From IMG/VR virus record IMGVR_UViG_2563366854_000003, positions 1 to 28,681 of that record: a stretch of 28,681 nucleotides of DNA; one strand, 5' to 3'. Positions 24,811 to 28,681 of the stretch are shown here, one piece after another. Position 1 is the first letter of the stretch; the number at the start of each line of letters is the position of its first letter. This DNA is from a virus. Lineage: Duplodnaviria; Heunggongvirae; Uroviricota; Caudoviricetes. The notes beneath the pieces were generated by a model. It made no database searches, was not told the DNA's origin, and saw nothing but the letters and a program-made list of their open reading frames with translations. A program made the translations under genes and the position numbers.

Positions 24811-26748
24811 GTGACTCTTAAACGGGCCTGTTCCCTGCTGACGGTGAAATCCTTCAGTGAGGATGAACGGGTGATCACCGGGATTGCGTCAACGCCTTCT
24901 CCGGATCGGGATGGTGACATCCTGGAGCCGGAGGGCGCGGAGTTTGGCAGTGCGATACCGTTTCTCTGGCAGCATGACCATTCCCGCCCGGTGGGGCAGT
25001 GTACGGTGCGCCGGGTCAGCGAAGGGCTGGAAATCACGGCAACACTGGTGAAGCCCGTACCGGATATGCCGTCGCAACTGGCTGCCCGGCTGGATGAGGT
25101 CTGGGCGGCCATTAAGACCGGGCTGGTCAGGGGGCTGTCCGTGGGCTTCCGTCCCCATGAATACACCTTTCTGGACGGAGGCGGACTGCATTTTCTGCGC
25201 TGGGAACTGATGGAGGTGTCTGCCGTCACCGTGCCCGCGAATGCGGAATGCACCATCCGGACCATTAAATCTTACGACCGCCCGTTTTCTGCCGCGTCCG
25301 GCAACCGGAAACCGGTGGTGAAAATCGCATCTTCTGCCGGCGCTGCGGCACAGTCAACAACCGTTTTTCATAAGGAAAAGACCATAATGAATATTGGCGA
25401 ACAGATTAAAAGTTTTGAAAACAAGCGTGCAGCGCTGGCAGCCTCCCTTGAGGAGGTCATGACCAAAGCCGCAGAGGAAGGGCGCACGCTGGATGTGGAG
25501 GAGGAAGAGCATTACGACAACACCGCAGCGGAAATCCGTCAGGTGGATGCGCACCTGAAGCGCCTGCGTGAACTGGAAGCCGGTAAGGCCGCCACGGCGC
25601 AGCCGGTGAAACAGGCCGGTAACGGGAATGTGGCCGCGGTGGCTTCTGCGCCGGTGATCCGTGTGGAGCAGAAACTGGATAAGGGGATTGGCTTCGCCCG
25701 CTTTGCCAAATCGCTGGCTGCGGCTAAAGGCGTCCGATCTGAAGCCCTGGAAGTGGCCCGTCGTCAGTATCCGGATGACAGTCGTCTGCATCATGTCCTG
25801 AAATCGGCAGTGGGCGCGGGGACCACCACGGATCCGCAGTGGGCAGGCAGCCTGTCTGAATATCAGGAATACGCACAGGACTTTATTGATTACCTGCGTC
25901 CGCAGACCATTATCGGGCGATTTGGTCAGGGCGGGATCCCTGCACTTCGTCAGGTGCCATTCAATATCCGTGTGCACGCCCAGGTGTCCGGCGGTGCTGC
26001 CGGCTGGGTGGGTGAGGGTAAGGCAAAACCCCTGACGAAGTTTGATTTTGAATCCATCACCTTCAGTCATGCGAAGGTGTCGGCCATTGCGGTACTGACG
26101 GAAGAATTGATCCGTTTTTCCAGTCCGGCTGCTGATGCACTGGTCCGTAATGCGCTGGCGGAAGCGGTGGTGGCGCGTCTGGATACAGACTTTGTGGACC
26201 CGAAAAAAGCCGCAGTGGCAGATGTCTCCCCGGCGTCCATCACCCATGATGTGAAGGGCACGGCATCAACCGGTAACCCGGATGCGGATGCAGAGGCTGC
26301 GTTTGGACAGTTTGTGGCAGCAAACCTGCAGCCCACCGGTGCGGTCTGGCTGATGTCCAGCACCAATGCCCTGGCACTGTCCATGCGTAAAAATGCGCTG
26401 GGTCAGAAGGAATACCCGGACATGACCCTGCTGGGTGGCTCCTTCCAGGGGCTGCCGGTGATTGTCTCCCAGTACGTGGGTGACCAGCTGGTGCTGGTGA
26501 ATGCCCCGGATATTTATCTGGCGGATGACGGCGGCGTGGCAGTGGATATGTCCCGCGAGGCATCACTGGAAATGCAGTCTGAGCCGACCGGCGACAGTAC
26601 CACGCCGTCCCCGGTGGAGCTGGTTTCCATGTTCCAGACAGGCAGCGTGGCCATCCGTGCGGAGCGCTGGATCAACTGGCGTCGTCGCCGTACTGCGGCG
26701 GTGGCGGTGATCACCGGAGTGAACTACGGCAGTGCGTCCGGCGGCTGA
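24811..26748 (+). CDS. Fused prohead protease (HK97/S78 family) and major capsid protein (HK97 fold)
   Basis: 645 aa, GTG start; N-terminal 'ITGIASTPSPDRDGDILEP...LWQHDHSRPVGQ...GLSVGF...EVSAVTVPAN' (prohead protease blocks), then a coiled-coil delta-like segment and an MCP-like C-terminal domain. Confidence 0.75.
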   Translation: MTLKRACSLLTVKSFSEDERVITGIASTPSPDRDGDILEPEGAEFGSAIPFLWQHDHSRPVGQCTVRRVSEGLEITATLVKPVPDMPSQLAARLDEVWAAIKTGLVRGLSVGFRPHEYTFLDGGGLHFLRWELMEVSAVTVPANAECTIRTIKSYDRPFSAASGNRKPVVKIASSAGAAAQSTTVFHKEKTIMNIGEQIKSFENKRAALAASLEEVMTKAAEEGRTLDVEEEEHYDNTAAEIRQVDAHLKRLRELEAGKAATAQPVKQAGNGNVAAVASAPVIRVEQKLDKGIGFARFAKSLAAAKGVRSEALEVARRQYPDDSRLHHVLKSAVGAGTTTDPQWAGSLSEYQEYAQDFIDYLRPQTIIGRFGQGGIPALRQVPFNIRVHAQVSGGAAGWVGEGKAKPLTKFDFESITFSHAKVSAIAVLTEELIRFSSPAADALVRNALAEAVVARLDTDFVDPKKAAVADVSPASITHDVKGTASTGNPDADAEAAFGQFVAANLQPTGAVWLMSSTNALALSMRKNALGQKEYPDMTLLGGSFQGLPVIVSQYVGDQLVLVNAPDIYLADDGGVAVDMSREASLEMQSEPTGDSTTPSPVELVSMFQTGSVAIRAERWINWRRRRTAAVAVITGVNYGSASGG

Positions 26749-26792
26749 GTCTGATAAGGAGGACGGGAGGCGTGCGCCTCCCGTAACAGGTT

Positions 26793-27014
26793 ATGGCAAA
26801 GATCCGATATCTGCAGGGCACGCATGATGCCCGGGCCGGGGATATCCGTGATGTGGCACAGCCGTGTGCGGAGGTGCTGGTTCGCCTGGGAAAGGCGGAG
26901 TACATCACGGTGCGACGTCCGGCAGGTCAGAAAAAGAAACGTGATGCGGAGCATGGCGAATGTGGAACCTTTTACGGCGAACCCGAAAAAACCAGAAATC
27001 AGGACGTGACGTAA
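26793..27014 (+). CDS. Small hypothetical ORF overlapping the portal start (uncertain)
   Basis: 73-aa ATG ORF; no close RBS; overlaps the portal ORF in another frame. Confidence 0.25.
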   Translation: MAKIRYLQGTHDARAGDIRDVAQPCAEVLVRLGKAEYITVRRPAGQKKKRDAEHGECGTFYGEPEKTRNQDVT

Positions 27015-28681
27015 GAGAGGCGGGCTGGACCAGCCTGTTTCAGGCGGTGGCTGAGCCCTTTTCCGGCGCCTGGCAGCAGGGCGTGAAAGCCGATCCTGAA
27101 GCCGTCCTCTCCTTTCATGCGGTGTTTGCATGTATTTCGCTGATATCCCAGGATATCGCCAAAATGCGGCTGCGTCTTATGCAGACGGATGCGCATGGGA
27201 TACGCAGGGAAACGCGCCGGGGGGATATTGCCCGCCTCTGTCGTCGTCCCAACGCCCAGCAGAACCGCATCCAGTTTTTTGAACTGTGGCTGAACGCCAA
27301 ACTGCGTCATGGCAATACGGTGGTGCTGAAAATCCGTAATGCCCGGGGGCAGATCAAAGAACTGCGTATTCTGGACTGGAGCCGGGTTGAACCTCTGGTG
27401 GCGGATGACGGCGAGGTGTTCTACCGCATCACGCCGGACCGGAACTGCGGGATCACGGAGGCGGTGACGGTGCCTGCCCGGGAAGTGATCCACGACCGGT
27501 TTAACTGTTTTTTTCATCCGCTTATAGGATTGCCGCCGGTGTATGCCGCCGGGCTGGCGGCCACGCAGGGGCATCATATTCAGGAAAATTCGACGTCTTT
27601 TTTCAGAAATGGCGGCAGGCCGTCCGGGGTGATTGAGATCCCCGGCAGTATTACGGAAGAAAATGCGAAAAAACTGAAGAGCAACTGGGACAGCGGGTAT
27701 ACAGGCGAAAATGCGGGGAAAACGGCCATTCTGAGCAACGGGGCAAAATACAACCCCACGACGTTTTCACCTGTGGATGCGCAGACGGTGGAACAACTGA
27801 AGATGACCGCTGAAATTGTCTGTTCGGTGTTCCGTGTCCCGGCCTACAAGATTGGCGTGGGACAACCGCCTTCCAGTGACAACGTGGAGGCGCTGGAGCA
27901 GCAGTATTATTCCCAGTGCCTGCAGACGCTGATTGAGTCCATTGAACTGTTACTGGATGAGGCGCTGGAAACGGGGGAAAACGAGAGTACAGAATTTGAT
28001 GTCACCACGCTGCTGAGAATGGACAGTGAGCGGCGCATGAAAACGCTGGGGGATGCGGTGAAAAATACGCTTCTCACGCCCAATGAGGCCCGTAAACGGG
28101 AGAACCTGCCGCCCCTGGCCGGCGGTGATGCACTGTATCTTCAGCAGCAGAACTACAGTCTGGAGGCGCTGTCCCGTCGTGATGCCCGTGAGGATCCGTT
28201 CGCGTCTGCCGGGAAAACAGTTTCATCACAGCTGCCTGACGGCGCATCTGACGGTAATAAGGCAATCAGTGAAACAGAGCATGATGCGGTGAAAGCGATG
28301 TTCAGGGGGGATACTGAGAAAATGACGGAACGGGAACTGTCCATTATTCGTGCACTGGGAGAAGAATTCTCCACAGTGCTGGCGGATTTACAGCGCACAT
28401 TTGAGGGGAAGATGGCCTCGCAGGCACAAGCGTTTGAAGAGAAACTGACTTCCCTGTCGGCGGTATTACAGAAGCATGTGACGGTGGATGAGGTGCGTCC
28501 GGTTCTGCAGGCGATGGTGGATGACGCTGTGGGGGCCATTCCGGTACCGCGTGATGGTCGTGATTATGATCCGGATGTACTGCAGCAGGCGGTGAATGAT
28601 GCGGTCGCAAATATTCCGCAGCCGGCGGACGGTAAAAGTCTCACCCCGGATGATGTGCGTCCGATGCTTGAACAGATGGTG
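26960..28681 (+). CDS. Portal protein (HK97-family-like), 3' end truncated by the window
   Basis: Open frame from ATG 26960 to the window end (no stop; missing from the ORF track for that reason); manual translation 'MWNLLRRTRKNQKS...FFRNGGRPSGVIEIPGSITEENAKKLKSNWDSGYTGENAGKTAILSNGAKYNPTTFSPVDAQTVEQLKMTAEIVCSVFRVPAYKIGVG...' matches portal conserved blocks. Confidence 0.7.
   Translation, partial: MWNLLRRTRKNQKSGRDVREAGWTSLFQAVAEPFSGAWQQGVKADPEAVLSFHAVFACISLISQDIAKMRLRLMQTDAHGIRRETRRGDIARLCRRPNAQQNRIQFFELWLNAKLRHGNTVVLKIRNARGQIKELRILDWSRVEPLVADDGEVFYRITPDRNCGITEAVTVPAREVIHDRFNCFFHPLIGLPPVYAAGLAATQGHHIQENSTSFFRNGGRPSGVIEIPGSITEENAKKLKSNWDSGYTGENAGKTAILSNGAKYNPTTFSPVDAQTVEQLKMTAEIVCSVFRVPAYKIGVGQPPSSDNVEALEQQYYSQCLQTLIESIELLLDEALETGENESTEFDVTTLLRMDSERRMKTLGDAVKNTLLTPNEARKRENLPPLAGGDALYLQQQNYSLEALSRRDAREDPFASAGKTVSSQLPDGASDGNKAISETEHDAVKAMFRGDTEKMTERELSIIRALGEEFSTVLADLQRTFEGKMASQAQAFEEKLTSLSAVLQKHVTVDEVRPVLQAMVDDAVGAIPVPRDGRDYDPDVLQQAVNDAVANIPQPADGKSLTPDDVRPMLEQMV

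Follow-up and report, generated by a model that had tools for sequence, protein, structure and literature searches.

Packaging and head-assembly genes of a lambdoid Escherichia coli prophage, with a fused prohead protease–major capsid gene and a portal gene joined in frame to a repeat-containing accessory module

The stretch of DNA described here (the window) comprises positions 1–28,681 of the IMG/VR virus record IMGVR_UViG_2563366854_000003, and the region under study is the 3.9 kb between positions 24811 and 28681. This region contains a 645-codon gene in which a prohead protease and a major capsid protein are fused, a small open reading frame (ORF) of 73 codons, and a portal gene that runs on into an accessory module cut by the window edge. 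Immediately upstream are genes for an HNH endonuclease and for the small (TerS) and large (TerL) terminase subunits (Table 1); the HNH gene is presumably a packaging accessory of the type found in HK97-like cos phages. At the nucleotide level the region shares 100% identity with Escherichia phages vB_EcoS-705R7 and vB_EcoS-783R2, 99.8% with the Stx2c phage 2851 (FM180578) and Stx2a_WGPS6, and ∼96–98.5% with YYZ-2008, BP-4795 (AJ556162), JLK-2012, and 1717. In the near-identical phage records the genes are annotated as "putative major head protein/prohead protease" and "portal protein". The head block is already known, since its sequence matches deposited phages and its features, namely the fusion of protease and capsid, the order of the genes, and the over-long portal, are captured by public annotation and by the family libraries PHROGs and NCBIfam. 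The region very probably comprises the DNA-packaging and head-assembly genes of a lambdoid E. coli prophage that has a long tail and an HK97-like head, a degree of confidence that applies jointly to this identification and to the nested capsid product, the single-G portal fusion, and the reading of the accessory module that are set out below.

The gene order typical of this lineage is HNH, TerS, TerL, protease-capsid, small ORF, portal (with the module), and a gp6-like connector, and no portal gene is present between TerL and the capsid gene in the window. An earlier note on this DNA, made from the sequence alone, had placed the portal gene 3′ of the capsid gene, and not 5′ of the protease as in canonical HK97-like modules. 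The placement is correct and the departure from the canonical order is real, but it is not unusual for the lineage, whose conserved and annotated layout it is. Distant phage relatives were identified by a tblastn search of phage genomes and by inspection of annotated neighborhoods. Fused homologs of 644–648 aa (73–78% identity) were detected in Salmonella, Enterobacter, Klebsiella, Serratia, Kosakonia, and Pantoea, and the E. coli cluster of the fused capsid protein contains 9916 member sequences. The protease and capsid are likewise fused in Rhizobium phage RHph_X2_26 (656 aa, 48% identity) and Pseudomonas phage IME307 (667 aa, 48% identity), and are encoded by separate genes in Burkholderia phage vB_FUBS1 (39% identity) and Moraxella phage Mcat7 (37% identity). 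The order TerS, TerL, protease/capsid, small ORF, portal, (second gene), gp6-like connector is kept in several distant phages, and a metagenomic prophage was found to have the same head-gene order as the window. Since this layout extends from E. coli to phages of Rhizobium, Pseudomonas, Burkholderia, and Moraxella, it constitutes a conserved alternative to the HK97 order and not a peculiarity of the window. Longer fusions were encountered in single E. coli records, P0364 (1079 aa) combining the TerL ATPase, protease, and capsid domains and P0367 (784 aa) the protease, capsid, and portal domains; both are probably rare lesions or else artefacts of a frameshift or of assembly.

The product of the fused gene aligns end to end with the fused homologs at 50–78% identity, and PHROG 617 ("major head protein") spans its full length (E = 1e-261). 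The earlier note had described one polypeptide with protease, coiled-coil, and HK97-family capsid domains, and this description was upheld by domain searches of both large ORFs, in which the C-terminal half of the protein matched Phage_capsid and the downstream ORF matched Phage_portal, so that neither assignment was overturned. Toward the N-terminus, aa 48–152 match the Pfam family PF04586 (Peptidase_S78; E = 2.4e-8, 34.7 bits against a cutoff of 21), and His55, in a WQH motif, and Ser110, in a GLSxGF motif, are invariant in alignments of homologs at 50–78% identity. These two residues are presumably equivalent to His65 and Ser114 of HK97 gp4. In the AlphaFold model of the N-terminal domain (predicted local distance difference test [pLDDT] scores of 62–80), the top 13 Foldseek matches in the PDB were herpesvirus proteases (probability 0.82–1.0, E values of at least 3.7e-3), the best of them assemblins including pUL26N (probability 0.97–1.0, E ∼4e-3); a sequence search of the protease part alone against the PDB returned nothing significant. 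The capsid part matches PF05065 (Phage_capsid) at aa 386–635 (E = 4.2e-14, 53.1 bits against a cutoff of 24.2) and TIGR01554 (major_cap_HK97) at aa 204–584 (E = 6.8e-22, 78.1 bits against a cutoff of 27.5). A profile of the fused-capsid family, when compared with solved capsid proteins, matched 9d9w (E = 6.8e-11), and residues 4–64 of 9gyi, a 385-aa "Major head protein" whose length and name lead us to regard it as HK97 gp5, were matched to aa 198–258 (E = 7.8e-7), within the predicted delta (scaffolding) domain.

Two results sit less comfortably with these assignments. The match to the protease family TIGR01543 (46.5 bits) falls below the equivalog cutoff of 59, and the capsid half (aa 337–645) has pLDDT scores below 50 in the AlphaFold model of the whole fusion protein, so that its HK97 fold rests on hidden Markov model and sequence homology. 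The model was built from an alignment of 25 sequences, has an overall pLDDT of 41.8, and is usable for the protease and delta parts; its poor quality over aa 337–645 is attributable to the shallow alignment. The NCBIfam model NF045541, "prohead protease/major capsid protein fusion protein", gave 54 bits against a cutoff of 525, and represents the same architecture in a different sequence family.

Within the fused gene, an in-frame ATG codon (Met193) preceded by the sequence AAGGAA, which resembles a Shine-Dalgarno (SD) sequence, occupies the site of the capsid start codon in the Burkholderia and Moraxella relatives, whose protease and capsid genes are unfused. An SD-like 4-mer at −17 to −5 together with ATG193 was present in 76/76 distinct fused genes, compared with 9.2% of control positions in the same genes, where the 76 are related sequences and not 76 independent trials. 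The motifs preceding the conserved ATG across the fused genes are AAGGA, AGGAG, or AGGAGG; by lineage, AAGGAA is found in the window and in the metagenome prophage, AAAGGAG in the Rhizobium phage, and AGGAGG in the Pseudomonas phage. The linker around Met193 is the least conserved part of the fused protein, and the motif can be regarded as conserved at the nucleotide level because it lies in differing codon phases between lineages (e.g., K-E versus Q-G-N). Since the SD-like motif and ATG193 are kept in all 76 fused genes, at what is the capsid start of unfused relatives, these observations suggest that the ancestral capsid start has been retained as Met193 and that a nested, capsid-only product may be made besides the full-length protein. 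Two considerations weigh on the other side, namely that the AAGGAA of the window is 9 nt from ATG193, at the long end of normal spacing, and that both initiation at Met193 and proteolytic maturation are deduced from sequence only.

In the mechanism proposed, the full-length product would make up a minority of the subunits and, by way of its inward-facing delta domain, would bring the protease into the procapsid, while a second, more abundant product of 453 aa would be initiated at the internal SD-like sequence and ATG and would comprise the capsid protein only. After assembly, the protease would then remove itself and the delta domain, perhaps by cutting after Lys331, which is invariant. The protease-capsid "fusion" probably represents two nested genes whose arrangement fixes how much protease is made relative to capsid protein.

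The 73-aa ORF that follows the capsid gene overlaps the start of the portal gene by 55 nt. Homologs in both position and sequence are present in the Burkholderia, Moraxella, Pseudomonas, and metagenome relatives and share an M..YLK..DA..aGE...A..Li.LG motif and a basic tail, and the ORF is a conserved small gene of the head module. PADLOC returned no matches for either this ORF or the accessory module.

The portal ORF starts at an ATG at position 26960 and remains open for 574 codons to the window end; in phage 2851 the same ORF encodes 859 aa. Its portal domain is complete by ∼aa 420–450 and was matched by PF04860 (Phage_portal) at aa 54–382 over profile positions 2–321 of 321 (E = 2.5e-81, 273.8 bits against a cutoff of 39.1), by TIGR01537 (portal_HK97; E = 1.9e-104, 349.5 bits against a cutoff of 112), and by the solved HK97-family portals 9lbn (1e-28) and 8cez (4e-20). 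The excess length, which had been put down to a C-terminal extension or fusion, can indeed be traced to a fusion with the next gene brought about by one extra G. In BP-4795 the same DNA forms two genes, encoding a portal of 454 aa and a second protein of 461 aa (ORF59), whose stop and start codons overlap as ATGA. Alignment shows that the junction in the window and in phage 2851 is TTCAGGGGGGAT, with a run of six G residues (G6, positions 28305–28310), and that BP-4795 has five (G5). The ancestral ATG of the downstream gene is kept in frame as portal Met455 (position 28322), and the additional G joins the portal gene in frame to this next gene, which otherwise stands on its own in tight coupling with the portal gene.

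A census of this junction was made in 80 IMG/VR loci, in which the window and phage 2851 (L001) and BP-4795 (L002) are included in the counts. The G6 run coincided with the fused state at 15/15 loci and the G5 run with the split state at 23/23. The two states are separated by a single-G indel, since eight split loci share identical junction flanks with the fused allele. All loci at 72–78% capsid identity whose contig extends past the portal gene (18/18) are split, as are the Rhizobium and Pseudomonas phages, whose second gene is a homolog of the E. coli module. In public protein clusters, 454-aa portals account for 2223 and 2367 members and the fused protein for 6387. Because these relatives are split and both states are abundant, the split state is ancestral and the fused allele a derived, widespread E. 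coli variant; the G5/G6 polymorphism of E. coli prophages provides natural unfused and fused variants of the module.

The full module, as found in phage 2851, is ∼405 aa in length and consists of a helical N-terminus of ∼85 aa, tandem 54-aa units, and a conserved C-terminal domain of ∼140 aa. The 54-aa units are encoded by 162-bp tandem repeats, of which phage 2851 has 3.3 copies at 95% identity (L001:15737–16269); repeat number varies, and the fused proteins range from 723 to 959 aa. In the window the array starts at approximately position 28547 (L001:15737), and the window ends 134 nt into it. In public data, dozens of E. coli contigs and "partial portal" proteins likewise stop inside this array, so that the window edge probably reflects a break in short-read assembly within the repeats. 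The 162-bp repeats of this gene routinely interrupt assembly from short reads, as at the end of the window.

AlphaFold modeling of the module predicted the repeats to be helix-loop beads (pLDDT 50–70) and the C-terminal domain to be all-beta (pLDDT > 95), with CBM5/12-like units in tandem. The model of the latter superposes on the chitin-binding domains of 2d49, 2rts, and ChiB (root mean square deviation 1.1–1.9 Å over 44–46 residues, probability 1.0), in keeping with a CBM5/12 fold. Foldseek matches of its sub-units, with weak E values, also include the carbohydrate-binding modules (CBMs) of a Vibrio chitin deacetylase and tail-fiber proteins of Agrobacterium phages 7-7-1 and Milano, and among its BFVD matches are many phage proteins with collagen repeats or with CBM5/12 or ChiC_BD tips. 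Collagen-like Gly-X-Y stretches are present in the Rhizobium homolog of the module. Matches of the module to Pfam TetR_C_35, DUF4244, FliG_N, and similar families were rejected as spurious products of the helical repeats, and no MuF domain (PF04233/PF06152) was matched at E values up to 1.

An exhaustive HMMER search identified 5580 clusters (at 50% identity) matching the module at E ≤ 1e-3 and 2626 at E ≤ 1e-10. Among the module matches listed, most are 250–550 aa, too short to include a portal domain, and nearly all are standalone. Eight matches of 658–1237 aa were scanned and a portal domain was detected in only one, P0348 (1237 aa), which is encoded by a distantly related prophage present in two metagenomes and having the same module order as the prophage in the window. 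The P0348 protein has ∼24 repeats and a Ser/Pro/Asp-rich linker, and there is no ATG at the junction. It represents an independent portal-module fusion, one from which the module can be made only attached to the portal. Elsewhere the module is encoded by a separate gene that abuts or overlaps the portal gene, as in BP-4795, the Rhizobium and Pseudomonas phages, and ∼45 IMG/VR loci, and it is absent from the Burkholderia and Moraxella relatives.

No functional name for the module family was found in Pfam, PHROGs, NCBIfam, or the source names of ten sampled clusters, and its members are usually labeled "hypothetical" or, by transfer, "portal protein". Many portal-module proteins carry the precomputed Pfam accession PF28083, which may be a recent family covering the module. 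Literature searches, among them ones around the PAJU2/D3-like phages, MD8, AH14a, and Ab31, turned up nothing on the processing of this capsid protein or on the module, although no search was aimed at the repeat/CBM family itself.

The position of the module gene directly 3′ of the portal gene, which it overlaps or abuts, suggests coupled, low-level expression, and the absence of the module from the Burkholderia and Moraxella relatives indicates that it is dispensable. The module is therefore inferred to be a low-copy, dispensable accessory protein of the virion that resides at the portal vertex. Solved portals have their C-terminus in the crown, where it faces the capsid interior, so that the fused form would place twelve copies of the module inside the head, at least in the procapsid; from there it may stay inside, be released through cleavage by the prohead protease, or serve outside the head as a glycan-binding fiber. 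The two independent fusions to the portal C-terminus point to the portal vertex, and perhaps its interior, as the site where the module works. For the protein, a place inside the capsid and tethered to the portal, possibly with later release by the prohead protease, is tentatively favored, but at less than even confidence. With similar reserve, the module might be cargo that is tethered to the portal and, once ejected, binds a glycan such as peptidoglycan, or else a portal-vertex fiber not recognized before.

Several observations tell against an internal location and against the CBM5/12-like reading of the C-terminal domain. The Foldseek E values of the C-terminal domain in the PDB are weak (1.5e-3 or worse), its scores with Pfam PF02839 (CBM5/12) are 19.1–20.3 bits against a cutoff of 26.2, and the fiber-tip-like, repeat-variable build of the module looks like that of an external adhesin, which conflicts with the interior location implied by the fusion. 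The module could instead be an external neck or head fiber (an adhesin) that in the fused genomes acts after release or via an unusual topology. Such a fiber would account for the resemblance of the C-terminal domain to CBM5/12 chitin-binding domains and to the tips of collagen-like phage fiber proteins, for the Gly-X-Y stretches of the Rhizobium homolog, for a repeat number that varies from ∼3- to 24-fold as in fibers, and for the dispensability of the module in the Burkholderia and Moraxella relatives. It is harder to reconcile with two independent natural fusions at a C-terminus that is inside the capsid in solved portals, with the lack of a separate start for a free copy in P0348, and with the tight coupling to the portal gene, which suggests a low copy number. 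An external fiber is regarded as possible, if somewhat doubtful, and a smaller share of the likelihood goes to some other role.

The status of the fused allele itself must also be considered. That it is a degenerative lesion of a decaying prophage, non-functional and tolerated, might be supposed from the many defective lambdoid prophages of E. coli O157-type genomes, from the IS256-family transposase inserted in the prophage of the window (8527–9735), and from extra frameshifts in the portal gene at some loci (L052, L060). However, phage 2851, reportedly found to be inducible and infectious by Strauch et al. in 2008, carries the fused allele. Furthermore, in every G6 locus whose contig covers the whole gene, more than 400 codons follow the junction before a stop (stop-to-stop ORFs of 812–1028 codons) while repeat numbers vary, and the independent fusion in P0348 has no separate start left. 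A lesion is therefore considered very unlikely. A similarly low likelihood, if anything lower, is given to the G-run being a site of programmed recoding (ribosomal or transcriptional slippage) or a phase-variable G5/G6 switch, by which both products would be obtained from one genome. The same haplotype does occur with G5 and with G6, and reading of the G6 allele in the −1 frame still stops at the ancestral TGA within the ATGA overlap, such that a −1 slip would recreate the 454-aa portal; against this, the run is short (5–6 G) and includes no canonical in-frame X XXY YYZ heptamer, and the relatives outside the E. coli group are split. Finally, a homopolymer miscall merging two genes is scarcely credible as the origin of the long portal ORF, for although homopolymers are the classic site of sequencing error and eight of the split loci differ around the junction in nothing but the single G, 15 independent assemblies, the window among them, carry G6, as do the separately deposited 2851 and Stx2a_WGPS6, the fused protein cluster has 6387 member sequences, and the unrelated P0348 lineage has its own fusion in two separate metagenomes.

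Taken over its full length, the window is a lambdoid prophage of mosaic structure (Table 1). Its early/replication region is the site of the transposase insertion, and between positions 12817 and 18403 the layout is that typical of the late region of Stx phages, but lacks stx. Since no ORF of ≥120 aa is present between the tRNA genes (15312–15471) and the nanS-p-like gene (16532), the window has no stx genes, and the possibility that the window represents a Stx phage was rejected. The ∼1-kb gap between the tRNA genes and the nanS-p-like gene runs into a low-GC (0.42) stretch. The lipoprotein gene that separates the Rz/Rz1 pair from the HNH/terminase block is moron-like.

Table 1. Features of the packaging and head-assembly region and of the remainder of the prophage (window coordinates).
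Feature	Position	Strand	Evidence or remark
HNH endonuclease gene	21870–22235	+	Pfam HNH, E = 3.7e-8; just 5′ of terminase genes
Terminase small subunit (TerS)	22526–23089	+	Pfam Terminase_2, E = 1.2e-8; annotated terS in phage 2851
Terminase large subunit (TerL)	23086–24747	+	Pfam TerL_ATPase and TerL_nuclease
Fused prohead protease–delta/scaffold–major capsid gene, 645 aa, GTG start	24811–26748	+	Pfam, TIGRFAM, PHROG, and PDB profile matches
Protease domain, aa 1 to ∼160	24811–25290	+	Peptidase_S78 match; invariant His55 and Ser110
SD-like AAGGAA (25372–25377) and in-frame ATG, Met193 (25387–25389)	25372–25389	+	Putative internal start; capsid-only product of 453 aa
Delta (scaffolding) coiled-coil domain, ∼aa 193–290	25387–25680	+	9gyi profile match; long helices at 195–262 in AlphaFold model
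HK97-family capsid domain, Pfam core aa 386–635	25966–26715	+	Phage_capsid, TIGR01554, PDB 9d9w
Small conserved ORF, 73 aa	26793–27014	+	PHROG 829, E = 3.7e-39
Portal protein proper, HK97-family, aa 1–454	26960–28321	+	Pfam Phage_portal, TIGR01537, PDB portals; portal of split-gene relatives ends here
G-run deciding fused (G6) or separate (G5) portal and downstream gene	28305–28310	+	Junction alignment, locus census
Start of fused accessory module: helical N-terminal segment, then first 54-aa repeat	28322–28681	+	Ends at window edge
Integrase	1–1131	−	
IS256/Mutator-family transposase	8527–9735		Pfam Transposase_mut, E = 1e-118; inserted in early/replication region
Antiterminator Q	12817–13638		
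DNA methylase	14213–15262		
tRNA-Met and tRNA-Arg	15312–15471		
nanS-p-like sialate O-acetylesterase gene	16532–18403		
Rz (183 aa)	20280–20831		Pfam Phage_lysis
Rz1-like lipoprotein ORF (61 aa)	20584–20769		+1 frame inside Rz; classic nested pair
Predicted lipoprotein, 113 aa	21155–21496		TonB C-terminal domain, E = 1e-14; between Rz/Rz1 and HNH/terminase block

The relatives with which this head module should be compared are lambdoid prophages with long tails, both Stx and non-Stx (2851, BP-4795, 1717, YYZ-2008, and PPompW-type). The head-gene order and annotations of the Stx phages 2851, BP-4795, 1717, and YYZ-2008 are identical to those of the window, with no difference of substance, although BP-4795 and 1717 have the G5 (split) allele and other repeat numbers whereas the window has G6, and the prophage in the window is without stx, unlike phages 2851, Stx2a_WGPS6, and YYZ-2008. 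Comparison with 933W/Sakai-type prophages, which the earlier note had proposed, proved to be misplaced: the Sp5 head module has a P22/N4-type coat protein and a separate scaffold but no protease (PMC5155283), and 933W/Sp5 was rejected as a related head module on these grounds. The head type of the window is distinct from the 933W/Sp5 type.

The HK97 head module shares protein families with the window, namely an S78 protease, an HK97-family capsid protein with an N-terminal delta scaffold, and an HK97-family portal, and in both an HNH gene adjoins the terminase genes. In HK97, however, TerL is followed by portal (gp3), protease (gp4), and capsid (gp5) as separate genes, whereas the order in the window is TerL, protease-capsid, small ORF, portal, with the protease fused to the capsid protein and an extra module 3′ of the portal. 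Protease-capsid fusion genes have been described in Arthrobacter phages (clusters AM, AU, and AN) and in Rhodococcus phage RRH1 (PMC5513430); these likewise combine both functions in one gene, but their sequences are unrelated or only distantly related to that of the window. A paper on CBASS (cyclic oligonucleotide-based antiphage signaling system) that reports a "prohead protease fusion" was rejected as a precedent, as it concerns a protease-scaffold fusion of other architecture.

For the accessory module, a parallel is offered by SPP1 gp7/MuF, the gene for which is immediately 3′ of the portal gene and the product of which binds the portal inside the head (PMC5576092). Both genes directly follow the portal gene and both products are modular with a variable C-terminus, but the module described here differs in lacking a MuF domain and in having helix-loop tandem repeats and a CBM5/12-like beta domain. 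For the capsid gene, the closest parallels in logic are the C/Nu3 genes of phage lambda and the UL26/UL26.5 genes of herpesviruses, in which a long, protease-bearing product is accompanied by an internally initiated, shorter one without the protease, an arrangement that delivers a minority of protease into the procapsid. The putative two-product capsid gene of the window would follow the same nested, in-frame logic, except that the shorter product of lambda and the herpesviruses is a separate scaffold, whereas that predicted here would be the capsid protein itself, comprising the delta and HK97 domains.

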